Shown piece by piece: positions 4,231-18,323 of a stretch of DNA of 64,000 nucleotides. The number at the start of each line of letters is the position of its first letter. Within the stretch, counting starts at the first letter, position 1. The notes under the pieces are model-generated. The model searched no databases. It was not told the DNA's origin and saw nothing but the letters and a program-made list of their open reading frames with translations. Position numbers and translations under genes: made by a program. The DNA is from Dehalococcoidia bacterium (GTDB lineage: Bacteria; Chloroflexota; Dehalococcoidia; UBA2979): the NCBI GenBank assembly GCA_965247925.1, contig CBDFIB010000004.1:195499-259498 (forward strand). The letters run 5' to 3'.

Positions 4231-4998
4231 ATGACCAACCCAACGGGAGCCTACGAGCGCCGCATCGAGCTTGAGGGGGTGCGGAACTTCCGCGACCTCG
4301 GCGGCTACGAGACCGGCGACGGCGCGCGCCTGCGCTGGCGCACCGTCTACCGCTCCAGCACGCTCTGCGAGGCGACGCCCGCCGACGTGCAGCGCCTACT
4401 CGACCTCGACCTCACGCTCGTGCTCGACCTGCGCTCCGACGACGAACTCGAACGGACCGGCATCTCCACGCTGCACGAGCACGGCGTCGAACACCGCCAC
4501 GTGCCCTACCGGCGCAGCCTCACGACCTCGGCCGACCGCCTTGCGATGCGCGACCGCTCCGGGACGGGCCTCGACTACCTGCCCGGCATCGAGAGGTGCA
4601 TGCCGGCGGTCGGCGAGGTCTTCGCGGCGATCGCCGAGGTCGACGACGGGCAGGCGATCGCCTTCAACTGCGAGGGCGGCAAGGACCGCACCGGCGTGAC
4701 GGCCGCGCTGCTGCTGCGCGTGCTTGGCGTCCCCGACGAGACGATCGTCCAGGACTACGTGCTCACCCGCGAGTACCTGACGATGTGGCGTGACCTCAGC
4801 GACGAGCAGATCGCGGCGAGGGGTGAGCGGTGGGGCCTCGAGCTGACGCGCGCCATGCTCGACTCCACGCCCGACACGATGGAGGCGCTGCTGCGCGGGA
4901 TCGACGAGCGCTTCGGCTCCACCGCCGCGCTGCTCGCCCTCGGCGGCGTCGACACGTCCCTGATCGAGCGGCTGCGGGAGCGGCTGCTCGAGCGCTAA
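4231..4998 (+). CDS. Protein-tyrosine phosphatase (Tyr_Phos_2 family)
   Basis: CX5R P-loop ([10 protein letters not shown]), RNFRDLGG N-terminal motif. 255 aa. Confidence 0.8.
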
Positions 4999-5531
4999 CC
5001 GGACTCCCAGCCCGCAGCTGCGAGCGGTTCGACCCCCTCGAGGCCGACGTCGTCGCGCAGCTCGGCGACGCTGCGCCCCAGCAGCGGGTGCACGAGCTGC
5101 GGCGCGATCTCCGCGAGCGGGACGAGAACGAAGGAACGCTCGTGCATCCTCGGATGCGGGAGCTGCAGCTCCGCGCTCTCGATCCGCAGCTCGCCGGCAA
5201 GCAGCAAGTCGAGGTCCAGCGGGCGCGGGCTGTTGCGCGGCGCGTCGAGGTCGCGGCCCGCGGCGACCTCGATGCGCTTGCAGAGGCGCAGCAGCTCGAG
5301 GGGTTCGAGCGCGGTGCGCACACAGGCCGCCGCGTTCGCGTAGGGCGGCGCGGGCGCCAGGCAGGCCGGCGAGCCCCACGGCTCCGTCTCGTAGAGCGGG
5401 GACACCGCCTCGACGGTCACACCCGCCTCCGCCAGCCTCGCGAGCCCCGTGCGCAGCGCGGCGATCCGATCGCCGAGGTTGCCGCCGATCCCGAGGTAGA
5501 CGCGCTGCTCCGTGCCCTCGGCGGCTGTCAC
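4995..5531 (-). CDS. folK: 2-amino-4-hydroxy-6-hydroxymethyldihydropteridine pyrophosphokinase (HPPK)
   Basis: [12 protein letters not shown]...PLYETEPWG...RPLDLDLL motifs. 4-nt overlap with folP upstream. Confidence 0.9.
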
Positions 5532-6400
5532 GGCGATTCCGCCCGGCGGCCACCGTGCACGATCGCGTCGGTCACCCTCGCGACATCGGCCATCTCGCGG
5601 ACATCGTGGACGCGCACGATGTCGGCTCCGGCGGCGATGGCGAGCACGACGGTCGCGGCGCCTCCGGCGACGCGCGAGGCGGGCGGCTCCTGCTCGCGCC
5701 CAAGCGCCCAGCCGATCGCGGACTTGCGCGAGCTGCCGAGCAGCAGCGGCCGCCCGAGCGCGCGCAGCTCGCCGAACCGGCGCACGAGCTCGAGACTCTG
5801 CTCCGGCCCGAAGCCGAAACCGAAGCCCGGATCGAGAATCAGCTGCTCACGCGACACGCCCGCCGCCTCCGCGATCGCGAGCGATTCCTCGAGGCCCGCT
5901 CGCACGTCGGCGATCACGTCGCCAGAGGACGGGCGGCCACGCTGGTTGTGCATCAGCACCGCCGGCAGCCCGCGCGCGGCGAGCAGCGGCGCGAGCGCCG
6001 GATCGGCGCGCAGGGCCTGCACATCGTTGAGCGCGTCGGCGCCCGCCTCGAAGGCTCGCCCGGCGACGTACGCCTTCGAGGTGTCGACGCTGATCGGCGC
6101 CGCGACGGCGTCGCGCACGGCGCGCAGCACGGGCGCGAGGCGCGCCCACTCGCCGGGCCCGTCGAGGGGATCGTGGCCGGGGCGCGTGGATTCCGCGCCG
6201 ACGTCGATCAGGTCCGCGCCGTCCTCGATCATCCGCGCGGCCTGCTCGGCGGCGACGGCCGGATCGAGCACGCCGTCGCCGGAGAAGGAGTCCGGCGTGG
6301 CGTTGACGATGCCCATCACGTAGCTGCGCCGCCCCCACTCGAAGCAGCGCCCGCCGATCACGATCGGCGCGGGAGGCGCGGCGGACGGCTCGGACGTCAT
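5528..6400 (-). CDS. folP: Dihydropteroate synthase
   Basis: [16 protein letters not shown]..., [10 protein letters not shown], pterin-binding TIM-barrel motifs. Confidence 0.9.
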
Positions 6401-6419
6401 CGAGGGCGCCCCGGCGCGA

Positions 6420-6851
6420 TCAGACGATCTCGGCCGGGATCTCCTCGATCACGCCGCCCTGGTGAATGTAGTAGGCGTGCAGCGGAGGAGGTTCCCCGGC
6501 GAGCGAGACGAGCAGGTAGATGGTTCCCGGATAGGCCGGCTCGCGATCCGTCTCGCCGGGCGGGAAGAACGCCATCCGCACGTCCGTCTGCGAGGGGTAT
6601 GCGGGCGAGGCGACGTGCGAGTGATAGATCGCGAACAGCGCCTCGCCTCGTTCGTCGCGCTGCTGCTCCAGCCGCATCTGCTCCATGCCGTGCATCTCGA
6701 AGCGGTAGGGGCTGGCGGCGACGTTGGTCACGGGGTGCACGGAGACGGCCTCGCCGTCCTGGGCGTGCACCAGGCCGCAGGCCTCGTTCGGCAGATCCTC
6801 GCGGGCGTGCGCGATGATCGCATCGGCGAGGGCGCGCGGGATCCGTGGCAT
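6420..6851 (-). CDS. mec: Mec-like JAMM/MPN+ metalloprotease (CysO/MoaD-type sulfur-carrier deconjugase)
   Basis: EACG...HSHVASPAYPSQTD JAMM motif. Overall similarity in length and layout to mycobacterial Mec (Rv1334). Confidence 0.85.
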   Translation of the reverse strand: MPRIPRALADAIIAHAREDLPNEACGLVHAQDGEAVSVHPVTNVAASPYRFEMHGMEQMRLEQQRDERGEALFAIYHSHVASPAYPSQTDVRMAFFPPGETDREPAYPGTIYLLVSLAGEPPPLHAYYIHQGGVIEEIPAEIV

Positions 6852-7274: not shown

Positions 7275-8099
7275 CTACGTCTCGATCGGCACGCCGATCA
7301 GCGAGCCGTACTCGGTCCACGAGCCGTCGTAGTTCTTCACGTCGTCGTGGCCGAGCAGGTACTTGAGCACGAACCAGGTGTGCGAGGAGCGCTCGCCGAT
7401 GCGGCAGTAGGCGATTGCCGGCTCGTCCTCGACGACGCCCGCGCCGCCGTAGATCTCGCGCAGATCGTCGGCGCTGCGGAAGGTGCCGTCCTCGTTGACG
7501 GCGCGCGCCCAGGGCACGTTGATCGCGCCGGGGATGTGGCCGCCGCGCTGCGCCGTCTCCGGCAGGCCAGGCGGCGCGATGATCTCGCCGACGAACTCGG
7601 CCGGGCTGCGCACGTCCACCAGCTGCGGCGCCTGCGCCGCGACAGCCGCGAGGATCTCGTCGCGCTGGGCGCGCAGGCTGGCGTCCTGCTCCTGCGCCGT
7701 GTAGCTGGCGCGTCCAATCGAGGGCGCGTCGGTCGTGACCTCGCGCCCGTCGGCGATCCACTTCACGCGGCCGCCGTCCATCAGCGAAACCTGCTCGTGG
7801 CCGTGAAGCTCCAGCAGCCACAGCGCGTAGGCCGCGAACCAGTTGTTGTTGTCGCCGTAGAGCACCACGTGCGTGTCGTTGCTGATGCCAGAAGACGCCA
7901 GCAGGTCCTCAAGGTCGTCCTTCGCGATCACGTCGCGGCGCACCTGGTCCTGCAGCTGCGTCGCCCAGTTCCAGCCGGCGGCGCCCGCGATGTGGCCCTC
8001 GTCGTAGGCGCCGGTGTCGACGTCGACCTCGACGAGGCGCACGTTCGAGTCGCTTCCGTGTTCGGCTACCCAGTCCGCCGTCACAAGCTTGTCCGTCAT
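7275..8099 (-). CDS. sseA: Thiosulfate/3-mercaptopyruvate sulfurtransferase (tandem rhodanese domains)
   Basis: Two rhodanese domains; active-site CRIGERSS loop. Start taken at MTDKLVTADWV (ATG 8099) rather than the track's 8153. Confidence 0.85.
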   Translation of the reverse strand: MTDKLVTADWVAEHGSDSNVRLVEVDVDTGAYDEGHIAGAAGWNWATQLQDQVRRDVIAKDDLEDLLASSGISNDTHVVLYGDNNNWFAAYALWLLELHGHEQVSLMDGGRVKWIADGREVTTDAPSIGRASYTAQEQDASLRAQRDEILAAVAAQAPQLVDVRSPAEFVGEIIAPPGLPETAQRGGHIPGAINVPWARAVNEDGTFRSADDLREIYGGAGVVEDEPAIAYCRIGERSSHTWFVLKYLLGHDDVKNYDGSWTEYGSLIGVPIET

Positions 8100-8208: not shown

Positions 8209-9165
8209 CTACCACCAGAGCGTCGTGTTCACGTCCTCCTCGATCGCGTCGTAGTCCTGCGTCCAGAGGCCCGAGGACAGGTACTTCCAGCCGCTGTCCG
8301 CGAGCAGGCAGACGACCTTGCCGCTGCGCATCCGCTCCGCCGCGCGCTGCGCGGCGCGCACCGCCGCCCCGCTGGAGACGCCGGCGAAGATGCCCGTGCG
8401 CTCGGTCAGCTCCCGCGTCAGCCGGAACGAGGTCGCCGAGTCGACGACGATCCGCCCGTCGAGCACGGACTCGTCGAGGACGGGCGGGATGTAGCCCTCC
8501 TCGAGGCTGCGCAGGCCCTGCACCAGGTCGCCCGGATGCGGGGCCGCGGCGACGATGCGCACGGCCGGGTTGTGCTCCTTCAGCCGCCGCCCGACGCCGG
8601 TCAGCGTCCCGCCGGTTCCGAGGCCGGCGACGAAGACGTCGGTGTCCGGCAGGTCCGCGATGATCTCCGGGGCCGTGCTCTCGTAGTGGGCGCGCGGGTT
8701 GTCCTCGTTGTCGTACTGGAAGGGCATGAACCACTCGGGGTGCTCGGCGTGGATCCGCTGCGCCTCGCGCACCGAGCCGTTGGTGCCGAGGTCGCCCGGC
8801 GAGTAGAGGATCTCCGCGCCGAAGCTCTCGAGCAGCTCGACGCGCTCGCGGGTGACGGCGTCCGGCATCACCACCTTCACTGGGTAGCCACGCAGGCGGC
8901 CGATCATCGCCAGCGAGATGCCGGTGTTGCCGGAGGTCGGCTCGAGGATCGTCTGGCCGGGCTCTAGGCGGCCGTCGCGCTCGGCGGCGGAGACCATCCA
9001 CCAGGCGATGCGGTCCTTGACGGAGCCGGTCGGGTTCTCACCCTCCAGCTTCGCGTAGATGCTCACCTCGGGGTTGGGCGACATCACGGAGATGTCGACC
9101 AGCGGCGTGCCGCCGATGCGGTCGAGCAGGCTGCCGGCGGGCGTCCGTCCCGTCGCCTTAGCCAC
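8209..9165 (-). CDS. cysM: Cysteine synthase B-type (CysO-thiocarboxylate / O-phosphoserine dependent), PLP enzyme
   Basis: PTGSVKDR lysine motif and GNTG loop. Sits immediately downstream of a MoaD-like GG carrier, as in mec-cysO-cysM loci. Confidence 0.85.
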   Translation of the reverse strand: MAKATGRTPAGSLLDRIGGTPLVDISVMSPNPEVSIYAKLEGENPTGSVKDRIAWWMVSAAERDGRLEPGQTILEPTSGNTGISLAMIGRLRGYPVKVVMPDAVTRERVELLESFGAEILYSPGDLGTNGSVREAQRIHAEHPEWFMPFQYDNEDNPRAHYESTAPEIIADLPDTDVFVAGLGTGGTLTGVGRRLKEHNPAVRIVAAAPHPGDLVQGLRSLEEGYIPPVLDESVLDGRIVVDSATSFRLTRELTERTGIFAGVSSGAAVRAAQRAAERMRSGKVVCLLADSGWKYLSSGLWTQDYDAIEEDVNTTLWW

Positions 9166-9498: not shown

Positions 9499-10617
9499 CT
9501 AGTGCCCGCCGCCGTTGGCCGTCAGGGCCTCGAGCGGTGGGGCGCCGCAGAACGCGTCGTAGTCGATGAGCTCCGTCACGGTCGGCTCGTCACCGCAGAG
9601 CGGGCAAGCCGGATCGCGCCGCAGCTTCATCTCGCGGAACTCCATGGTCAAGGCGTCGATGAGCAGCAGCCGCCCGACGAGCGGCCGGCCGACGTCGAGC
9701 ACCTGTTTGAACACCTCGGTCGCCTGGATCGAGCCGACGATGCCGGTAATCGAGCCCAGCACGCCCGCCTCGGCGCAGGAGGGCACCAGGCCCGGCGGCG
9801 GCGGCGCGGGGTAGAGGCAGCGGTAGCAGCCCTGGCCCGGCTTGAAGACGGTGGCCTGCCCGTCGAAGAGCAGGATCGAGCCGTCCACCAGCGTCTTGCC
9901 CAGCAGGTAGGCGGCGTCGTTGACCAGGTAGCGCGTCGCGAAGTTGTCCGCGCCGTTCACCACGATCTCGTAGTCCGCGAGGATCTCCATCGCGTTCTCC
10001 GAGTGCAGCGGCGCCGGGTGCGTCACAACCCGCACGTGCGGGTTGTAGGCGTGCAGCGTGTCCACCGCCGAGTCGAGCTTCGTGCGCCCGACGTCCTCGG
10101 TCTGGTGCAGCAACTGGCGCTGCAGGTTGGAGAGGTCCACCACGTCGAAGTCGACGAGCCCGATCGTGCCGACGCCGGCGAGCGCGAGGTAGATCGCGAC
10201 CGGGGAGCCGAGGCCGCCCGCGCCCACGATCAGCACCTTCGCGTTGCGCAACTGGCGCTGCCCGATCGAGCCCACCTGCGACATGACGATGTGCCTCGAG
10301 TAGCGCATCGCCTCGTCCGGGGTGAGCGCCGCGCTCGGCGCGGCGCCGCCCGCGAGGGCGGGGATGACCGCGACCTGGTCGCCGTCTCCGACGGCGGTCG
10401 CGACGCCGTCGAGCTCGTGGATCTCCTGGTTGTTGACGTAGATGTTGATGTGCGCGGGCACCCGGCGCTCGCGGTCGTAGACGAGCATGTCGAAGCCCGG
10501 GTAGCGCGCGTTCACCGCGTCGAGGACGCCCGCCACGTCGCCGCCGTCCACCTCGACGTACTCGCGATTGGCCGTGAACTTGCGGAATGGCTGTGGGATG
10601 TAGACGCTGACCGCCAT
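9499..10617 (-). CDS. Fusion protein: N-terminal MoaD/CysO-like ubiquitin-like domain (ends ...IPALAGG) + MoeB/ThiF-type E1 adenylyltransferase with C-terminal CxxC...CPLC zinc motif; no rhodanese domain
   Basis: Residues 1-91 from ATG 10617 (MAVSVYIPQPF...VIPALAGG) resemble the two stand-alone carriers. These are followed by MRYSRHIVM...LIVGAGGLGSP (ATP-binding GxGxxG)...CYRC...CPLCG. The track start at 10746 would overlap cysK, so the internal ATG at 10617 (or 10650) is preferred. Confidence 0.85.
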   Translation of the reverse strand: MAVSVYIPQPFRKFTANREYVEVDGGDVAGVLDAVNARYPGFDMLVYDRERRVPAHINIYVNNQEIHELDGVATAVGDGDQVAVIPALAGGAAPSAALTPDEAMRYSRHIVMSQVGSIGQRQLRNAKVLIVGAGGLGSPVAIYLALAGVGTIGLVDFDVVDLSNLQRQLLHQTEDVGRTKLDSAVDTLHAYNPHVRVVTHPAPLHSENAMEILADYEIVVNGADNFATRYLVNDAAYLLGKTLVDGSILLFDGQATVFKPGQGCYRCLYPAPPPPGLVPSCAEAGVLGSITGIVGSIQATEVFKQVLDVGRPLVGRLLLIDALTMEFREMKLRRDPACPLCGDEPTVTELIDYDAFCGAPPLEALTANGGGH

Positions 10618-10682: not shown

Positions 10683-11636
10683 TCATGAGAGCGCCACGCT
10701 CAGGTAGCGCTCGCCCGTGTCGCAGAGCATCGTCACCACGCGACACCCCGGACCGAGCCGCTTGCCAACCTCGATCGAGGCCCAGACGTTGCTGCCGGAG
10801 GAGATGCCGACGAGCAGGCCTTCCTCGCGGCTGAGCCGCTCCGTTATCCGGAAGGCGTCCTCGTCGCGGACGCTGATCACCTCGTCGTAGATCTCGCGGT
10901 TGAGTACGCCCGGCACGAACGAGGCGCCGATGCCCTGGATGCCGTGCAGCCCCGCCCGCCCGCCCTGCAGCACCGGCGAGCGCGCCGGCTCGACGGCGAC
11001 GATGCGCACGTCCGCGGCGGCCTCGCGCAGCACCTCGCCGATGCCGGTGATCGAGCCGCCGGTGCCGACGCCGGCCACGAACGCGTCCAGCTCGCCGCCG
11101 GTCGCCTCGAGGATCTCGGGCCCCGTCGTCTCGCGGTGGATGCGCGGGTTGGCGAGGTTGTCGAACTGCTGCGGCATGAAGTAGCCGTGCTGCTCGGAGA
11201 GCTCGCGGGCGGCGTAGACCGCGCCCGTCATGCCCTCGATCGCCGGGGTCAGCCGCAGCTCCGCGCCGAAGCGCTCCAGCAGGCGGCGCCGCTCGACGCT
11301 CATGTCCTCCGGCATCGTCAGGATCAGCCGGTAGCCCTTGCGCGCGCAGACCATCGCGAGGCCGATGCCGGTGTTGCCGGAGGTCGGCTCGACGATCGTG
11401 TCGCCTAGCTCGATCAGTCCCTCGCGCTCGGCGTCCTCGATCATGCTGAGCGCGATCCGGTCCTTGACGGAGCCGGCCGGATTGCGCGATTCGAGCTTGC
11501 CGAGGATCTCGGCGCAGCCCTCGGGCACGACGCGGCCGAGCCGCACCAGCGGCGTGTCGCCGATCAGATCGAGCACGGTGTCGGCGATCGCCGGCTGGGC
11601 GCGACGACCCTCGGTGGTCGGCGCGGTGGTCGTCAT
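10683..11636 (-). CDS. cysK: Cysteine synthase A (O-acetylserine sulfhydrylase)
   Basis: GSVKDR, TSGNTG, typical CysK. Start at MTTTAP (ATG 11636), overlapping by 1 nt the TGA of the upstream Rrf2 gene. Confidence 0.85.
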   Translation of the reverse strand: MTTTAPTTEGRRAQPAIADTVLDLIGDTPLVRLGRVVPEGCAEILGKLESRNPAGSVKDRIALSMIEDAEREGLIELGDTIVEPTSGNTGIGLAMVCARKGYRLILTMPEDMSVERRRLLERFGAELRLTPAIEGMTGAVYAARELSEQHGYFMPQQFDNLANPRIHRETTGPEILEATGGELDAFVAGVGTGGSITGIGEVLREAAADVRIVAVEPARSPVLQGGRAGLHGIQGIGASFVPGVLNREIYDEVISVRDEDAFRITERLSREEGLLVGISSGSNVWASIEVGKRLGPGCRVVTMLCDTGERYLSVALS

Positions 11637-12082
11637 CAGATCGAGTAGTTCGCCGCGCGTGCGTGCTGCTTCGCCCGCGCGCGCTCCGCGAGGTCGGCGA
11701 TGCTCACCGCGCCGAGGCGGCTGCGCATGTCCTCGTAGATCTCCTCCCAGACGGTGCGCTGGGCGCAAAGACCGCATTCGAACGAGCACTCCTCACCGTC
11801 CTCGATGCAACTGATCGGCGCGACCGAGCCCTCGAGCGTCTCGATCACGTGCAGCAGGCACATCTCCTCGGGCTTGCGAGTGAGCAGGTGGCCGCCTCCG
11901 GGGCCGCGCACGCTGCGCACGAAGCCGCCGCGCCGCAGCAGGGCGAGCAGGTGGTCGAGGTAGGACTCCGGGATCTCCTGGCGACCGGCGATTCCCGCGC
12001 GCTGGACCGGCCCCTCGCCGTCGTGGAGCGCGAGGTCAATGAGCGCGCGAACGCCGTAATCGCCCTTCCTGCTCAGCCACAT
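11636..12082 (-). CDS. Rrf2-family transcriptional regulator (CymR/IscR-like)
   Basis: MWLSRKGDYGVRALIDLA... wHTH, plus three Cys in CIEDGEECSFECGLC (possible Fe-S ligands). Start at internal ATG 12082. Confidence 0.8.
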   Translation of the reverse strand: MWLSRKGDYGVRALIDLALHDGEGPVQRAGIAGRQEIPESYLDHLLALLRRGGFVRSVRGPGGGHLLTRKPEEMCLLHVIETLEGSVAPISCIEDGEECSFECGLCAQRTVWEEIYEDMRSRLGAVSIADLAERARAKQHARAANYSI

Positions 12083-12085
12083 TTT

Positions 12086-12140
12086 CCCGACCGCCGCTAA
12101 TGTCGAGTAAGTTGACCAACATTCTAGCACAAGGGTCGGT
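12086..12140 (-). promoter_or_regulatory. Candidate promoter/operator of the Rrf2-cysK... operon
   Basis: On the coding strand: ...TTGTGCTAGAATGTTGGTCAACTTACTCGACATT then ATG. Extended -10 (TGcTAGAAT) followed by an imperfect palindrome GTTGgtCAAC overlapping the predicted transcription start region. Confidence 0.3.
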
Positions 12141-12200
12141 TGGGCCAAGCACTCGGGGATCGGGGCAGGTCAGCGTCCACGGGCGTCACTCGGGATTCGA

Positions 12201-13286
12201 TCAGCTCACCTGATACTGTTTGATGGCGTCCTGGTCGAACTCGAGGCCCAGACCCGGCTTGTCCGGCACCACAATCTGCCCGTCCTCAATGACCGGGGTT
12301 TCTTCAAACAGCCGTAGCGTCCAGGGCATGTACTCCACCGTCAGTCCGTTTGGAATGGCGGCAATGTTGTGCACCTGAATCTCGGGTAGCAGGTGGCTGA
12401 CCACCGGCAGATTGAATGCCTCAGCCATGCCCGCCACCTTTCGGAACTGGGTTATCCCGCCCACCCGCAGCAGGTCGATCATCACAATATCCATCGAGCG
12501 GTGCTCCAGCATGTGCCGGAAGGGACGGATGCCATACACGTACTCTCCGGCGGCGATGGGCGTGGTGAGCGAGTCCGCCACTCGGGCCAATCCCTGGTAG
12601 TCGTCCCGGGCCACCACGTCTTCCAGCCAGAACAGGTGGTACTCCTCCACACGTGACCCAATATCGATGGCCTGGTTCACGTCCCAGAGTTGGTTGATGT
12701 CGCACATCAGATCAATGTCCGGGCCGATGGCGTCGCGCAGGGTGCGGATGCGAGCCACCTCGCGCCGAGCGGTAGGTTCGGCGCCCATCTGGGTCTTCAT
12801 CTGCCTGAAGCCCAGCTCCACCAGGCGAGGACCGGCCTCGGCCAGATACTCCAGATCCATGGGACGCCCCAGTGCGCCGCTGGCGTAGGTAACGACCCGG
12901 TCGCGGTGACCACCCAGCAGGGAGCACACCGTCTGGTTCAGGGCCTTTCCCTTGATGTCCCACAGAGCGATGTCGATGGCCGATATCGCCAGGCTGAATA
13001 TGCCCTCCGGGCCGGAACCGCCCGCCGCGAGTCGCAACCTGTCGGTTACCGCCTCCACCTGCAGCGGGTCTTCGCCCACCGTCAGTTCACAGAGATTGTC
13101 GACCGCAGTGCGCAGGGCCGGGGTGAGCGGGCCACCGAAGAACGTAATGCCGATGCCCTGCACGCCTTCGTCGGTGTCCAGTTCCAGAGTGACGAACTCC
13201 CGGGTGCCAGGCTCGTCGATGCCCACCACCAGGGGATTGTCGGCCGGGGTTTGCAACACACGGGTGGTCCAGCTGCTTACTTTCAT
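12201..13286 (-). CDS. Mandelate racemase / muconate lactonizing enzyme family protein (enolase superfamily)
   Basis: N-terminal capping domain plus TIM barrel (KALNQTVCSLLGG, MCDINQLWD, EDVVARDD). Start at MKVSSWTT (ATG 13286). Confidence 0.8.
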   Translation of the reverse strand: MKVSSWTTRVLQTPADNPLVVGIDEPGTREFVTLELDTDEGVQGIGITFFGGPLTPALRTAVDNLCELTVGEDPLQVEAVTDRLRLAAGGSGPEGIFSLAISAIDIALWDIKGKALNQTVCSLLGGHRDRVVTYASGALGRPMDLEYLAEAGPRLVELGFRQMKTQMGAEPTARREVARIRTLRDAIGPDIDLMCDINQLWDVNQAIDIGSRVEEYHLFWLEDVVARDDYQGLARVADSLTTPIAAGEYVYGIRPFRHMLEHRSMDIVMIDLLRVGGITQFRKVAGMAEAFNLPVVSHLLPEIQVHNIAAIPNGLTVEYMPWTLRLFEETPVIEDGQIVVPDKPGLGLEFDQDAIKQYQVS

Positions 13287-13580
13287 GTGACTGCCCCCGG
13301 AATTGCTCCTTGATTCATAAGCCCTCACCCCAACCCTCTCCCTCAGGGAGAGGGGGCCGGAGCGGTCAGTCCCCGATTGTGCGCGGGGGGAAATCCCTGG
13401 CCGGGTGCGCCGCGAGCACTGCTTCATCGAGGTCGATGCCGAGGCCCGGCGCGGTGGGGAGGGCGATGTGGCTGTCCTCGACCTCGAAGGCCGGCGTCGC
13501 GGCTTCCCGGCCCCACGGCTCGAAGTTCACGAAGCAACCGGTGATGATGAAGCTGGGCATCATCACCGGCGGCAGTATGC
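13225..13580. repeat. Direct repeat copy A (~350 bp, ~90% identical to 15100-15450)
   Basis: By-eye alignment of 13262-13580 with 15127-15450. It covers the 5' end of the MR gene at 12201, a conserved palindrome ccctctccctcagggagaggg (13334-13354), and a 3' fragment of a paralog of the MR gene at 15240. Confidence 0.8.
13366..13566 (-). pseudogene. C-terminal fragment (about 66 aa) of an MR-family paralog (a copy of the 3' end of gene 15240..16376)
   Basis: ...FIITGCFVNFEPWGREAATPAFEVEDSHIALPTAPGLGIDLDEAVLAAHPARDFPPRTIGD is nearly identical to the C-terminus of the intact gene at 15240, but has no upstream body. Confidence 0.6.
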
Positions 13581-13635
13581 GCGACTTTGTGAACGAGCAG
13601 AAGGCTCGCCAGGAACGCGGCGAGGCAACCGACTG

Positions 13636-15033
13636 CTAGAGCTCCGGGTTGCGCATGAAGTCCGTCGCCTGCTCGTAGGCGTAGCCGGCCCGGCAGAGCG
13701 CCTGTTCGCTGCCCAGCGGACCGACGAGCTGCAGCGCGATCGGCATGCCCCGCTCGCTCCAGCCGTTGGGCAGAGTCAGCGTCGGGGCGCGGTTCATGTC
13801 CCAGGGGACCGTGTACTGCAGCCGCCGCCACTGGAATTCTCCCGGCCTGTCATCGTACATCATGTCCTCGGTCACCCGGTGCGGCAACGTGCCCTGGGCC
13901 GGACAGGCCAGCATGTCGATGTCGGCGAAGACCCGAGCCAGTAGGCCGCGCAGTTCTTCGCGGCGGATGCAGGCGTCGGCGTACTCGGTCGCGCTGACAG
14001 ACGACCCCAGCTCCAACCAGGCGCCGAACCAGTTGCCGTAGTCGCCGGCCCGGTTCGGATAGTTATCGAGATGCGCGTGTAGAGCCTCAACCGAGCAGAG
14101 CGTCGGCAAATCGGCCATGTAAGGCATGAAGTCGGGTAGTTGGACCAAGACGATCTCCGCGCCCAGCGATGCCAGGGTTTCGACCGATGCGGCGACGGCC
14201 TCGGCGATTGGCGGGATTACGTCTTCGGTCGCATAGCGCTCGTCATAGCCGATCCGCATACCCGCAACGCCGCCGTCGATCCCGTCAAGCATGGCCGGAG
14301 CCGGCTCGGGCAGCGTGGTCGGATCGTTGGGGTCGTCGCCCGCGATCACTTCGAGCGTGACGGCGCAGTCCCAGGTCGAGCGGCACATCGGGCCGACGTG
14401 GTCGAGCGACTGCGCCAGGTCGAGCACGCCATAGCGGCTCACGCGTCCCCAGGTCGGCTTCAGACCGACGATGCCGCAGGCTGCGGACGGGGTACGGATA
14501 GAGCCGCCGGTGTCGCTGCCCAACGACGCGTAGCAAAGCCCGGCCGCTGTCGCCACAGCGGAGCCGCTGGAGGAGACGCCGGCCCAGCGTCCGGCGTCCC
14601 AGGGGTTAACCGGCACCTGCCGCGCGCGGTTGTATCCGGCCATCGCGCCCTCGGTCATGTTGAGCTTGCCCAGCATCACCGCGCCGGCGTCTTTGAATCG
14701 GGCGACGACCGTGGAGTCGAAGTCAGGAACGAGGTCCTCGAGCACCTTCGTCCCGCCCATCGTGCGGACGCCCGCCGTGTAGCAGAGGTCCTTGACCGCG
14801 ATCGGAACCCCGTGCAGCGGACCGCGATAGTTGCCGGCGGCGATCTCGTCCGCGGCCTGCTGCGCTTTCGCCAGCGCCGAATCGGCCATCACAGTCGCGT
14901 AACTCTTGAGCCGACCGTCGTGCGCCTCGATGCGGTCCAACTGGGCCTGCGTCAGCGCGACCGGCGACAGCTCTCCTGAGGCGATCCGCGGGGCGAGCTC
15001 TTCGATCGTTGCGTAAGCGAGGTCATCGGTCAT
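13636..15033 (-). CDS. Amidase (amidase-signature family)
   Basis: GGSSSGSAVATAAG AS-family signature, catalytic K (AVKD) and S-cisS-S residues. 465 aa. Confidence 0.85.
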   Translation of the reverse strand: MTDDLAYATIEELAPRIASGELSPVALTQAQLDRIEAHDGRLKSYATVMADSALAKAQQAADEIAAGNYRGPLHGVPIAVKDLCYTAGVRTMGGTKVLEDLVPDFDSTVVARFKDAGAVMLGKLNMTEGAMAGYNRARQVPVNPWDAGRWAGVSSSGSAVATAAGLCYASLGSDTGGSIRTPSAACGIVGLKPTWGRVSRYGVLDLAQSLDHVGPMCRSTWDCAVTLEVIAGDDPNDPTTLPEPAPAMLDGIDGGVAGMRIGYDERYATEDVIPPIAEAVAASVETLASLGAEIVLVQLPDFMPYMADLPTLCSVEALHAHLDNYPNRAGDYGNWFGAWLELGSSVSATEYADACIRREELRGLLARVFADIDMLACPAQGTLPHRVTEDMMYDDRPGEFQWRRLQYTVPWDMNRAPTLTLPNGWSERGMPIALQLVGPLGSEQALCRAGYAYEQATDFMRNPEL

Positions 15034-15064
15034 TGGTCAGCTCCGTCCGAATCGGTCGTTTCCC

Positions 15065-15160
15065 AGTCCCGGCTCGGGGGTCGGGCTGATCGACGCCGAC
15101 GATGAGGGGATTAACGTCCGGGGTCTGCAGCACACGGGTGGTCCAGTTGCTTACTCTCAT
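15065..15160 (-). pseudogene. N-terminal fragment (about 30 codons) of a paralog of MR gene 12201..13286
   Basis: MRVSNWTTRVLQTPDVNPLIVGVDQPDPRAG matches MKVSSWTTRVLQTPADNPLVVGIDEPGTREF, then diverges and runs into the amidase start. Confidence 0.5.
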
Positions 15161-15450
15161 GTGACTGCCCCTGGAATTGCTCCTTGATTCATACGCCCTC
15201 ACCCCAACCCTCTCCCTCAGGGAGAGGGGGCCGGAGCGGTCAGTCGCCGATTGTACGCGCGGGGAAGTCCCTCGCTGGATGAGCCTCGAGGACTGCTTCA
15301 TCGAGGTCGATGCCGAGGCCCGGCGCGGTGGGGAGGGCGATGTGGCTGTCCTCGACCTCGAAGGCCGGCGTCGCGGCCTCCTGGCCCCACGGCTCGAAGT
15401 TCACGAAGTACTCCGTGATGATGAAGTTCGGCATCGTCGCCGCGGCCTGC
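15100..15450. repeat. Direct repeat copy B (partner of 13225-13580)
   Basis: See copy A. Contains the same palindrome at 15208-15228. Confidence 0.8.
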
Positions 15451-16376
15451 AGCGTCGCGGCCAGCGCCACGGTCGTCGAGTTGTAGTTGTGCGGAGCGAC
15501 CGCGACGAAGTACGCCTCGGCCATCGCGGCGATCTCCGTCAGTTCCTTGATGCCGCCCACGTTCGCCACGTCGGGATTGATGATGTCCGCCGCGCGCTGC
15601 TCGAAGACCTCGCGGAACTCGAACTTCGTGTAGAGTTCCTCGCCCGTGACGGTGGGGATGTTGATCTGCGCCGTCGCGGCGGCCAGGGCGGTCACGTTCT
15701 CGGCCCAGACCGGCTCCTCGAACCAGAACGGCTCGTACTCCTCGACCATCTTCGCGAGGCGCACCGCGTTCGAGGGACTCAGCCGGCGGTGGACCTCGAC
15801 CAGCACGTCGACGTCGGGGCCGACCGCCTCGCGAACCGCGCGCACGCGATCGGCGGCGACGCGCAGCTCCTTCATGCCCACGTAGCTGCGCCACTTGCCC
15901 GGCACCGGATCGAACTTGAGCCCGGTGAACCCGCGCTCGACCATCGCGCGCGCTCGCGCCTGCAGCTCCTCGAGGTCGTCCATCCTCGCCCAGCCGTTGG
16001 CGTAGACGCGCAGCCGATCGCGCACCGCGCCGCCGAGCAGCTGGTGCACGGGCATCCCCGCACGCTTGCCCGCGAGGTCCCACATCGCCTGTTCCACACC
16101 GGAGATCGCCGCGTACAGGTCCATCGCGCCGCGCCGGTTGCCGAAGTCGTTGTGGATGGCGTCGGTCCAGGGCTTAATCCGCGCCGAGTCCCAACCCACG
16201 ATGTAGCGCCGCAGCGCCTCGAGGTGCGCCGTGATCTGGATGTCGCGGTCCGACTGCGTGTAGCACTCGCCCCAGCCGTGCAGCCCGTCGGCCGTCTCCA
16301 GCCGGACGAAGCAGAGGTTCTTGCCCGCGATGTAGCGATCCGGCTGCCCCGTGTCGGGCGGCGTGGGGTGGACCAG
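15240..16376 (-). CDS. Mandelate racemase / muconate lactonizing enzyme family protein, start codon non-canonical or unresolved
   Basis: TIM-barrel part in track ORF 15240..16199 (KFDP..., EEP, PDV). The N-terminal capping domain (...KNLCFVRLETADGLHGWGECYTQSDRD...) continues in frame upstream to a TGA at 16401-16403 with no ATG/GTG/TTG. The only candidate start is CTG 16376. Confidence 0.65.
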   Translation of the reverse strand: MVHPTPPDTGQPDRYIAGKNLCFVRLETADGLHGWGECYTQSDRDIQITAHLEALRRYIVGWDSARIKPWTDAIHNDFGNRRGAMDLYAAISGVEQAMWDLAGKRAGMPVHQLLGGAVRDRLRVYANGWARMDDLEELQARARAMVERGFTGLKFDPVPGKWRSYVGMKELRVAADRVRAVREAVGPDVDVLVEVHRRLSPSNAVRLAKMVEEYEPFWFEEPVWAENVTALAAATAQINIPTVTGEELYTKFEFREVFEQRAADIINPDVANVGGIKELTEIAAMAEAYFVAVAPHNYNSTTVALAATLQAAATMPNFIITEYFVNFEPWGQEAATPAFEVEDSHIALPTAPGLGIDLDEAVLEAHPARDFPARTIGD

Positions 16377-16487
16377 GTGTAGCGAAGGTGAGTGGAGCGG
16401 TCAAGGTCTCCCGATTCGCCGATCGCAACGAGAGGCCGGCGATCATTCGCCTACCCCTCCAGCGTTGCGTGGACTGCCGACGGCGCG

Positions 16488-16763
16488 CTAGCCTCCGGCG
16501 ACCGCCGGGACGATCGAGACCTCGTCGCCCTCGGCCAGCTCGCTGGCGAGGCCGGAGAGGAAGCGCACGTCCTCGCCGTTGACGAAGACGTTCACGAAGC
16601 GGCGCAGTTCGCCGTCTTCCTCGCAGAGCCGCTCGCGCATCCCGGGGTAGGACGCCTCGAGGTTCTGAACCACGTCGCCGAGGGTTGCGCCCTCGAGGCT
16701 GACCAGCTCCTGGTCCCCGGTCAGGGTGCGGAGCGGGGCGGGGATTCGCACGTTCACTGCCAT
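16488..16763 (-). CDS. MoaD/ThiS/CysO-like sulfur-carrier protein (C-terminal Gly-Gly), paralog of 9181..9456
   Basis: 91 aa ending ...SIVPAVAGG. RRFVNVFVNGEDVRFLSG...EGDEVSI is near-identical in pattern to the cysO-like protein. Confidence 0.8.
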   Translation of the reverse strand: MAVNVRIPAPLRTLTGDQELVSLEGATLGDVVQNLEASYPGMRERLCEEDGELRRFVNVFVNGEDVRFLSGLASELAEGDEVSIVPAVAGG

Positions 16764-16818
16764 CGCAGCGGTCCTCTCGATGCCGGGCCCGGCGGGGCCG
16801 GGCGGGATTGCAGCCGGG

Positions 16819-17067
16819 TTAGCCCTCGACGATGTCGCCGAGGGTGGCCTGATCGACGCGCACGCCCTTCGCCTGGGCCCAGGCGATCGCGCGGTCGATC
16901 TCGTCGGGTTCGCCCTCGAGCTCGAGCACGACCCAGCCGACGCGCTCGTCGACGTCCGCCATGCGGATGTTGGTGACGACCTCGAACTCGCGGCCGATCA
17001 GGTAGATCAGCGGCTCCTTGATCAGTTCGGGCGAGAAGGTGAAGCGGACCGGTCTGCTCGCCATCAT
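16819..17067 (-). CDS. NIL-domain protein (MetN C-terminal-like ferredoxin fold), 82 aa
   Basis: Only the last 82 codons of track ORF 16819..18291 are plausible: MMASRPVRFTFSPELIKEPLIYLIGREFEVVTNIRMADVDERVGWVVLELEGEPDEIDRAIAWAQAKGVRVD. The ATG at 17067 overlaps the TGA of the upstream ThrC-like gene (ATGA). Confidence 0.75.
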   Translation of the reverse strand: MMASRPVRFTFSPELIKEPLIYLIGREFEVVTNIRMADVDERVGWVVLELEGEPDEIDRAIAWAQAKGVRVDQATLGDIVEG

Positions 17068-18323
17068 GCGCCTCCTGCCGCGGCCGCGGCGGGCGCCCGC
17101 CGCGCCTCGTAGGCCTCGAAGAATGCGTCGCTGCGGGCGGGCACGTGCAGCGGGCTGGAGAGGCCGCCCTGCAGCGCCTCGGTGGTCTTGAGGCCGCCGC
17201 CGGTGATGAAGGCGACGGTCTCCTCGCCGGGCGCGATCTGGCCGCGTTCGGCCATGTGCTTGAGGCAGGCGATCGTGGTGCCGCCCGCCGTCTCGGCGAA
17301 GATGCCCTCGGTCTCCGCGAGCAGCTTCATGCCCTCGACGATCTCCGCGTCCGTGGCCATCGCCGCGACGCCGTTCGTCTCCTCCAGCGTCTTGAGCGCA
17401 TAGTACCCGTCCGCCGGGTTGCCGATCGCGATCGAGCGCGCGATCGTGTTCGGCTTCTGCGGCCGGAAGTTGAGCGTGCCCTCCTCGAAGGCGGTCGCGA
17501 TCGGCGAGCAGCCGGTCGCCTGCGCGCCCGACATGCGCGTCCGCGGCTCGTCGATCAGGCCGACCTGGTGCAGCTCCTTGAAGCCCTTCCAGATCTTCGT
17601 GAAGAGCGAGCCCGAGGCCATCGGCACCACGCAGTGGTCCGGTGTGCGCCAGCCGAGCTGCTCGGCCACCTCGAAGGCGAGCGTGCGCGAGCCCTCGGCG
17701 TAGTAGGGCCGCACGTTGATGTTGACGAAGGCCCACGGCTTGGACTGCGCGACCTCGGTGCAGAGCCGGTTCACGTCGTCGTAGGAGCCCTCGACCATCA
17801 CGAGGGTCGGGTTGTAGACGCCGCTGCCGACGACCTTGCCCTCCTCGAGGTCTTGCGGGATGAAGACGATCGTCTCCATGCCGGCGCGCGCGCCGTGCGC
17901 GGCGACGGAGTTGGCGAGGTTGCCGGTGCTGGCGCAGGCGATGCCCGTGTAGCCGAACTCGCGCGCCTTCGCGATCGCGACGGCGACGACGCGGTCCTTG
18001 AACGACCACGTCGGGTTGACGGTGTCGTTCTTGATCCAGAGCCGCTCGATGCCCAGCGCGTCCGCCAGGCGGTCGGCGCGGAGCAGCGGCGTGAACCCCG
18101 CTGCGAGGTCTACGCGGTACTCGGGATCGGAGGGCAGCAGATCGGCGTAGCGCCAGAGCGTGGCCGGGCCGGCGGCGATCGACTCGCGGGAGATCGCGTT
18201 GGCGATGCCCTCGTAGTCGTAGTCGACCTCGAGGGGGCCGAAGCAGAACTCGCAGAAGAAGATCGGTTTGAGCGGGAACTCGCGACCGCACTCGCGGCAG
18301 CGCAGGGATTGTTCGAAGGACAT
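17064..18323 (-). CDS. Threonine synthase-family PLP enzyme with N-terminal zinc ribbon (candidate O-phosphohomoserine sulfhydrylase / homocysteine synthase rather than canonical ThrC)
   Basis: CRECGREF...CEFCFG zinc ribbon. SFKDR PLP-lysine motif and the ThrC fold. Operon context with NIL + MoaD-like carrier. Confidence 0.85.
   Translation of the reverse strand: MSFEQSLRCRECGREFPLKPIFFCEFCFGPLEVDYDYEGIANAISRESIAAGPATLWRYADLLPSDPEYRVDLAAGFTPLLRADRLADALGIERLWIKNDTVNPTWSFKDRVVAVAIAKAREFGYTGIACASTGNLANSVAAHGARAGMETIVFIPQDLEEGKVVGSGVYNPTLVMVEGSYDDVNRLCTEVAQSKPWAFVNINVRPYYAEGSRTLAFEVAEQLGWRTPDHCVVPMASGSLFTKIWKGFKELHQVGLIDEPRTRMSGAQATGCSPIATAFEEGTLNFRPQKPNTIARSIAIGNPADGYYALKTLEETNGVAAMATDAEIVEGMKLLAETEGIFAETAGGTTIACLKHMAERGQIAPGEETVAFITGGGLKTTEALQGGLSSPLHVPARSDAFFEAYEARRAPAAAAAGGA

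Follow-up and report, generated by a model that had tools for sequence, protein, structure and literature searches.

A probable old insertion with duplication placing an amidase gene between two MR/MLE-family genes in a Dehalococcoidia bacterium

The 64-kb stretch of Dehalococcoidia DNA analyzed here (assembly GCA_965247925.1, contig CBDFIB010000004.1, positions 195,499 to 259,498; hereafter the window) contains an amidase gene lying between two genes of the MR/MLE family and bracketed by direct repeats. All genes within 10-19 kb of the window are on the minus strand, and gene2, the amidase and gene1 follow one another in this direction. Both gene1 and gene2 carry MR_MLE_N and MR_MLE_C domains (PF02746, PF13378), which places them in the MR/MLE subgroup of the enolase superfamily. 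An earlier note on this DNA had described the repeats and proposed that the junction between the two MR genes was duplicated when the amidase segment was inserted or retained. The features concerned are listed below in window coordinates; A and B denote the repeat copies, X the segment between them, gene1' and gene2' the truncated gene copies, L numbers the loci of other genomes, and ORF an open reading frame.

12201..13286, minus strand: MR/MLE-family gene1, 361 aa, intact, with G+C lower than its neighbours
13200..13569, no strand: repeat copy A, with a 3' fragment of gene2, the spacer and the true 5' end of gene1 (outgroup L003 aligns from 13573)
13322..13354, minus strand: BoxC/PIT/TMECO intrastrand-triplex motif, copy A, exact consensus match
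13366..13569, minus strand: gene2' fragment, last 67 codons and stop of gene2, non-functional
13418..13503 (= 15292-15377), no strand: 86-bp identical tract, putative gene-conversion tract (P = 0.0004)
13570..13639, plus strand: remnant of a convergent enoyl-CoA hydratase gene, last ~22 codons and stop, translating to GSMRDFVNEQKARQERGEATDC*
13570..15073, minus strand: insert X, 1504 bp, apparent ectopic copy of a native EthD-amidase-><-enoyl-CoA hydratase locus (DNA match to L004)
13636..15033, minus strand: amidase-signature-family gene, intact, 465 aa (PF01425)
15023..15160, minus strand: chimeric 45-codon ORF (gene1 start and X leader), its stop overlapping the amidase ATG by 11 nt
15034..15073, minus strand: native amidase leader, 40 nt, with GGAG upstream of the ATG (homology to L004 5961-6000)
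15074..15160, minus strand: gene1' fragment, first 29 codons of gene1, allele PDVNPLIVGVDQ
15074..15443, no strand: repeat copy B, with the true 3' end of gene2, the spacer and a 5' fragment of gene1 (L003 alignment runs to 15082)
15196..15228, minus strand: BoxC/PIT/TMECO motif, copy B, identical to A, exact consensus match
15240..16412, minus strand: MR/MLE-family gene2, body intact and strongly constrained, start region damaged

A repeat search returned a direct repeat at 13201-13500 and 15075-15374 (90% identity, spacing 1874), and its full extent, established by alignment and by comparison with outgroup and donor loci, was 370 bp for each copy (A = 13200-13569, B = 15074-15443). The copies align without gaps and differ at 41 of 370 positions (88.9% identity), the match being neither short nor below 70% identity. 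The earlier estimate of ~350 bp and ~90% identity was therefore sound, with coordinates (13225-13580 and 15100-15450) off by 10-25 bp at each end. Read in the direction of transcription, each repeat begins with the final 204 bp of gene2, continues with a spacer of 79 bp and closes with the initial 87 bp of gene1; the gene2 stop lies at 15240 in B and at 13366 in A, and the gene1 ATG at 13286 in A and at 15160 in B. Gene2 extends upstream only from B and gene1 extends downstream only from A, so that the complete gene2 ends in B and the complete gene1 starts in A, as the earlier description of reciprocal fragments had stated. Both repeats align to approximately the same part of L003 (~7732-8087), and together they represent one contiguous target segment whose reciprocal truncated fragments face the insert. 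The gene2' fragment is annotated in L002, L089 and L090 as an MR_MLE_C ORF of 65-84 aa; this protein, called by gene callers in the relatives, is a remnant and not a gene. In the window, no further stop interrupts the minus-strand frame of the amidase over 13366-13635; past the amidase stop, this frame crosses the hydratase remnant and then the gene2' fragment, as far as the old stop of gene2.

The origin of the segment between the repeats was indicated by L004, which matched the window at 85.4% DNA identity over 15073-13570 and nowhere else in the 64 kb, the match spanning 40 nt upstream of the amidase start and 66 nt past its stop. The amidase is 92% identical to P0121, its closest full-length homolog, located in L004. 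It matches PF01425 over residues 27-447 (profile positions 2-445 of 445, E = 2e-106), possesses a serine motif of the GSDTGGSIR type and reached no NCBIfam equivalog cut-off. In L004, the gene order is APH-aminotransferase-EthD-amidase-><-enoyl-CoA hydratase-carboxyltransferase, with overlapping amidase and hydratase stop codons, and this native amidase neighbourhood recurs in L086/L087 and L088. The C-terminus of the L004 hydratase, GSMRDFMNQRKAQQERGEATDY, is the counterpart of the remnant GSMRDFVNEQKARQERGEATDC in the window. Since X includes the 3' end of this convergent hydratase gene, the amidase of the window is to be regarded as a secondary copy; X is also unlike a mobile element, being part of an unrelated locus, itself conserved, with one end lying within a neighbouring gene. 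No transposase ORF was found in 9-19 kb and no inverted repeats at the ends of X, nor was there a short target-site duplication at X, the duplicated segment being 370 bp long.

Relatives were reached by homolog searches, and eight loci of the clade were recovered. A scan of JGI metagenomes with gene1 gave no match above 84% and no additional loci of the clade, and no exact-sequence record was found for the amidase or gene1 of the window. The related loci displayed the following states (IS, insertion sequence).

L003: insert entirely absent; gene order ThiS-gene2-gene1-Rrf2, the gene2-gene1 spacer measuring 65 nt
L089: an intact amidase (465 aa) between a shortened copy B, which follows gene2, and the gene2' fragment, which precedes gene1
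L001: B shortened as in L089; amidase interrupted by an IS with a DDE transposase; gene2' fragment lost by deletion
L005: B also shortened; amidase frameshifted and accompanied by ~600 bp of extra sequence; gene2' fragment in a decayed state
L002 and L090: IS elements in place of the left side; X survives only in its final bases, followed by the gene2' fragment and gene1
L006: scar of ~120 nt in which the X leader and amidase ATG run directly into the final ~17 codons of the amidase, followed by the hydratase remnant and the terminal part of the gene2' fragment

The joint between X and gene2' has an identical sequence in the window, L002, L089 and L090. In L001, L005 and L089, X is adjoined by CAG(T)CCCGACCCCCGAG, a remnant that derives from gene1'. 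These common joints point to one inherited event. On this comparison the insertion appears as a single old event transmitted to all carriers, neither a transposon nor an assembly artefact, and in the sister lineages the insert has evidently been eroded by deletions and IS insertions. The comparison with relatives lacking the amidase, proposed in the earlier note, was provided by L003, where gene2 and gene1 are separated by the 65-nt spacer alone. Together with the match of L004 to exactly 13570-15073 (85%), this insert-free locus supports the proposal that the junction was duplicated upon insertion of the amidase. The adjacency of the two genes in L003 also agrees with the ancestral tandem pair suggested previously, but not with recent paralogs: gene1 and gene2 share just 28-29% amino-acid identity and are thus distant family members rather than a recent duplicate pair. 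The most likely order in the ancestor of the clade is ThiS - gene2 - spacer - gene1 - Rrf2.

L006 was considered as a second insert-free locus and rejected, its spacer being an insert scar with both ends of X. L003 and L006 are mutually closest in seven flanking genes (92-95% nucleotide identity), each being 87-94% identical to the window clade; the scar-bearing L006, itself ~89-91% identical, retains both X ends. The simplest history would place the insertion before the split of all eight loci, followed by a clean loss in L003. The sisterhood of insert-free L003 and scar-bearing L006 fits a precise, repeat-mediated loss, and recombination between A and B would yield exactly the L003 arrangement.

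Additional rearrangements were observed among these loci. The element inside the L001 amidase (4957-6615) is 1.66 kb long, has a DDE_Tnp_1 transposase and is flanked by matches overlapping by 5 bp, probably a target duplication. The left side of L002 and L090 (1-7400) is occupied by IS110-type and other transposases, with an IS21-type pair in L002 and an RVT_1 reverse-transcriptase gene in L090. The ~600 bp of extra sequence in L005 (9380-9980) lies between the amidase end and a second partial amidase 3' end, and this locus also has indels in the gene2' fragment and at the gene1 start.

From these data, the locus is best described as an old insertion-with-duplication structural variant, in which an ectopic amidase segment lies between gene2 and gene1 and the 370-bp junction is duplicated; the probability of this reading was estimated at about 0.75. 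Sequence comparison shows what kind of locus served as donor, where it was inserted and between which breakpoints, that mobile-element features are absent and that the origin was single. As to the mechanism, a single replication template switch or illegitimate recombination would generate the arrangement B-X-A in one step. The strand would leave in gene1 at about codon 29, copy the amidase locus and re-enter 370 bp further back; the resulting 370-bp duplication would keep both MR genes whole while the amidase joined the operon between them. The overlap at the first junction lies around CCCnGAG, within GTyGATC..., between GTCGATCAGCCyGGyACCCGGGAG of recipient gene1 and GTTGATCGGGATTCCCTGAGCGCCGGGAC of the native leader; that at the second is GCCG(n)CG, between AGGCCGCGGCGAC of gene2 and CTGCCGGCGCTG of the native hydratase end. 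The native donor sequence used for this comparison is that of another species, at 85% identity. Owing to apparent short G+C-rich microhomology at both junctions and the lack of a transposase, of terminal inverted repeats and of a short target duplication, template switching or illegitimate recombination is the most likely origin that can be deduced.

Several points weigh against this interpretation. The microhomology is suggestive only, given 10-15% later divergence and G+C-rich DNA in which matches of 4-8 nt are common. The native amidase copy of the same genome is not within the 64-kb window, and X may derive either from an intragenomic duplication or from import from another genome. L003 may represent a lineage, or an allele, in which the insertion never took place. 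The full copy B, with spacer and gene1' fragment, is found only in the window, the copies of L001, L005 and L089 being shorter. The structure is known from assemblies, and the link between the event and the BoxC/PIT/TMECO motif is positional only.

The distribution of mismatches between A and B is mosaic, with 18/87 in the gene1 part, 2/79 in the spacer and 21/204 in the gene2 part, and it includes the 86-bp identical tract (P = 0.0004, the chance of a run this long under random placement of mismatches). The gene2 of the window agrees with the fragment copies at derived sites (GAAGCAGT, CTCG, ACAATC), which sets it apart from the gene2 of L001 and L005. Spacer alleles are concordant within genomes, both copies of the window having the motif and both copies of L089 being without the hairpin. 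The repeats have thus, to judge from these patterns, exchanged sequence by gene conversion. Along with the sisterhood of L003 and L006, the identical tract, derived sites and concordant spacers lend indirect support to the earlier suggestion that the repeats are a substrate for recombination.

Codons 9-29 of the true gene1 of the window (13200-13260) show a cluster of substitutions, allele PADNPLVVGIDE, that is also present in L005 and in more distant lineages (P0241-P0254) and has the appearance of a patch imported by recombination. The fragment in copy B carries allele PDVNPLIVGVDQ, as do L001, L002 and L003. The high divergence between A and B at the gene1 edge is thus explained by the apparently imported allele of the true gene1, and the long copy B, with an allele unlike that of A, is probably old and not a recent copy of A. 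If the long form is the older one, which is quite probable, the short B of L001, L005 and L089 corresponds to a deletion of ~112 bp (GAGCA|...GATCA|G). The converse, an ancestral short B with the long B of the window produced by recent conversion from A, was disfavoured on two grounds, the difference between the gene1 alleles of B and A and the gene1'-derived remnant retained by the short form.

The 21-nt palindrome CCCTCTCCCTCAGGGAGAGGG that the earlier note had noticed in both repeats occurs in exactly two copies in the window (13334-13354 and 15208-15228), where none was expected from 100 shuffles. It forms the first two blocks of a 33-nt element, CCCTCTCCC-TGA-GGGAGAGGG-TTG-GGGTGAGGG, which matches exactly the consensus 5'-CCCTCNCCC-N3-6-GGGNGAGGG-N3-GGGNGAGGG-3' of the BoxC/PIT/TMECO motif (PMC4666352; none expected in shuffles). 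The two motif copies of the window are both due to the duplication. The motif is intergenic, starting 11 nt past the gene2 stop in the 79-bp spacer before the gene1 start; the breakpoints of the duplicated segment that surrounds it are 122 bp and 215 bp away. An exact search for the palindrome found this locus only, and a relaxed search, then the E. coli collection, revealed it as part of a dispersed motif, with a median of 16 places per E. coli genome at ~93% identity. The designation 'REP-like element' proposed earlier thus holds in a loose sense, for a dispersed, known motif, but not for the high copy number of REP/REPIN sequences, which is not reached in the window.

The Watson-Crick hairpin fold of the motif was evaluated at -28 kcal/mol (z = -2.85), the triplex itself being predicted from the pattern only. 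Without a T-run this hairpin is not a canonical intrinsic terminator; a promoter and terminator scan found no terminator-like site, and Rfam over 11500-17000 gave only an insignificant match to DUF3577 RNA (E = 0.61). Further occurrences were observed elsewhere: another Dehalococcoidia chromosome, L012, has three exact consensus matches in 1.6 kb (8016-8050, 8573-8607 and 9554-9588), looser copies lie at several other loci, including one in a Betaproteobacteria metagenome-assembled genome, and in E. coli MG1655 (L171) the motif is found between hrpB and mrcB. In relatives of the window, the motif is deleted or degraded and several later deletion end points fall within ~40 nt of it; deletions near the motif are also simply the tolerated ones.

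The motif has been reported from 262 proteobacterial genomes (Holder et al. 2015, PMC4666352). In E. coli MG1655 it is always intergenic; it acts neither as a promoter nor as a terminator, DNA polymerase is blocked by it in vitro, and its loci are far more rearranged among E. coli strains than control sites (PMC4666352). Because of its polymerase-blocking behavior in vitro and its association with unstable E. coli loci, it may, speculatively, have triggered the event. A stronger version, in which the motif stalled replication and provoked a template switch capturing a distant gene, and in which the 1.9-kb unit of junction and amidase now loops out and re-enters related genomes by homologous recombination as a recombinase-free cassette, is improbable. 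If true, the long-unexplained BoxC motif would gain a role in gene capture, extended beyond Proteobacteria.

Substitution rates indicated that the amidase was long kept and is now under relaxed constraint. Compared with native copies, omega (the ratio of dN to dS) was 0.064-0.071 at a dS of 0.65-0.92; compared with L089, it was 0.42 (dS ~0.03) and with L001 and L005 ~0.6 (dS ~0.03), whereas gene2 and gene1 gave 0.03-0.24 for the same genome pairs (dS 0.05-0.14). This conclusion also takes into account three independent disruptions, by an IS in L001, a frameshift in L005 and a deletion in L006. The overlap of 11 nt between the 45-codon chimeric ORF and the amidase ATG makes translational coupling of the amidase to this upstream ORF possible. 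In the comparisons with L089 and L001, the dS of the inserted amidase (~0.03) was below that of most flanking genes (0.03-0.20, same pairs), with only 7-11 synonymous differences. Such a low dS may reflect an exchange of the insert, or of the flanks, between lineages.

Among the alternatives, Campbell-type integration deserves the most attention, unlikely as it is. Here a circle of ~1.9 kb, composed of the amidase segment and a contiguous copy of the 370-bp junction, would have integrated by a single homologous crossover, and it could have been excised from another genome or have arrived by transformation. The resulting topology is the same as in laboratory insertion-duplication by single crossover, which is established knowledge, and the low dS of the amidase relative to its flanks could mean that the cassette moved between lineages by homologous recombination. 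This signal, however, amounts to 7-11 synonymous differences, no circle or excision product was seen at a locus known from assemblies, and the novel joints X/gene1' and X/gene2' would still need a prior illegitimate recombination. Searches of the literature on illegitimate recombination and Campbell integration yielded generic papers only.

It is very improbable that the amidase was ancestral at this site, the fragments being left from a tandem duplication of gene2-gene1 followed by deletions, and the insert-free genomes having lost the amidase. The words 'inserted or retained' in the earlier note permit this, and L003 may have lost the gene. However, X carries the hydratase 3' end and the leader of a different conserved neighbourhood, and the fragments abut X and sum to one contiguous 370-bp segment, as a single insertion with target duplication predicts; moreover, a full second gene2 or gene1 beside the amidase was seen at none of the eight clade loci.

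Misassembly or chimerism of metagenome strains as the source of the repeat or the insert is hardly credible. The genome is evidently a metagenome-assembled one, the long copy B is unique to the window and the gene2 start region looks damaged, which are points in favour of an artefact. Yet assembly duplications are normally identical, whereas the two copies differ at 41/370 sites, and gene1' in B differs in allele from its own gene1 while joining X at the same remnant as in the relatives. Six independent assemblies share the insert or its remnants, their place and the junction sequences. The occurrence of the same junctions in independent assemblies from different samples excludes an artefact for practical purposes, and the assembly duplication against which the earlier note had cautioned is disfavoured accordingly.

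The idea that a transposase or integrase moved the amidase as a cassette, using the palindrome as an attC-like or REP/RAYT-like recombination site, would be in line with the palindrome in each flanking repeat and with IS activity at the locus in relatives, but is just as implausible, as the palindromes lie 122 and 215 bp away from the breakpoints, X ends in a gene remnant and a leader without inverted repeats, the IS elements are later arrivals (that of L001 interrupts the amidase and has no counterpart in the window, L089 or L005, and those of L002/L090 replace the left side), and BoxC/TMECO was not found associated with transposons, phages or plasmids in E. coli (PMC4666352).

The best NCBIfam names for gene1 and gene2, talarate/galactarate and galactonate dehydratase, were below cut-off. 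The earlier delimitation of gene2 as 15240..16376 could not be maintained: it offers no ATG, GTG or TTG start, and the start region of the orthologs is damaged in the window. Compared with L001, L003 and L089, the region ~16377-16412 has a net loss of 8 nt, contains an in-frame TGA and lacks any ATG/GTG/TTG; not until 16199 does a canonical in-frame start, a GTG, occur. The remainder of the gene is under strong constraint (omega 0.03-0.07), and the lesion is either a very recent pseudogenization or a local assembly error. The flanking genes form a cluster of the sulfur-carrier type, with PALP, NIL and ThiS upstream and Rrf2, PALP and ThiS-ThiF downstream, and the closest homologs were found in metagenome-assembled genomes of Dehalococcoidia/Chloroflexota.

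Gene1 has a G+C content of 0.60-0.65 against ~0.70 in its neighbours (12150-13300). Its nearest homologs outside the clade (<=87%; loci L007-L033) occur in unrelated contexts without gene2, ThiS or Rrf2, and the gene2-gene1 pair therefore itself seems to be a clade-specific insertion into the sulfur-carrier cluster. The 490-aa ORF at 16819-18291 (minus strand) is not a single gene, since in relatives it corresponds to two, a PALP gene of 419 aa (17064-18323) and, after it, a gene of 81 aa with a NIL domain (16819-17064); when taken as one reading frame, it gave dN > dS.

The locus offers a well-resolved and datable natural case of a bacterial operon gaining a gene without a mobile element, in which one can follow the donor locus and its target, the two breakpoints, the gene conversion that came afterwards and the stages of decay reached in sister genomes. 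For annotation, the consequence is that two short MR-like ORFs of the window, and possibly gene2 too, are remnants rather than genes. The analysis also places an exact BoxC/TMECO motif, previously reported for Proteobacteria, in Chloroflexota and amid a rearrangement hot spot, which constitutes an independent data point for the claim that this motif marks unstable loci.

Several known systems resemble this locus in part. REP/REPIN sequences are high-copy short extragenic palindromes, unlike the two copies present here in 64 kb, at one locus, with a match to BoxC/TMECO instead. Composite transposons, IS26-type translocatable units and integron cassettes likewise bring a single gene into a new operon with direct repeats flanking it; here, however, the repeats are host gene sequence, and there is no transposase, integrase, attC or short target duplication. 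The likeness to the BoxC/PIT/TMECO loci of Holder et al. (2015) consists of the exact 33-nt match, the intergenic position and the strong rearrangement of the locus among close relatives; the differences are a host from Chloroflexota, not Proteobacteria, and the presence of two copies in 64 kb that both stem from duplication.

Campbell-type single-crossover insertion-duplication shares with the window the direct repeats of one chromosomal segment, with truncated fragments on the inner and intact genes on the outer side, and an insert removable by recombination between the repeats. In our case the insert is a plain chromosomal segment without vector, plasmid or phage backbone, and a circular intermediate is hypothetical. 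Models of fork stalling and template switching (FoSTeS) and of microhomology-mediated break-induced replication (MMBIR) have human copy-number variants, and amplification in E. coli under selection, as their main subjects. Like these, and like bacterial duplication join points that contain inserted DNA, the present locus would combine a putative templated copy of a distant locus with a flanking duplication and candidate short microhomologies, and would need no recombinase; it differs in that the event is ancient, its junctions are blurred and the donor is represented by a locus of another genome. The event is thus an ordinary bacterial genome rearrangement, a new example of known processes rather than a new type of element.

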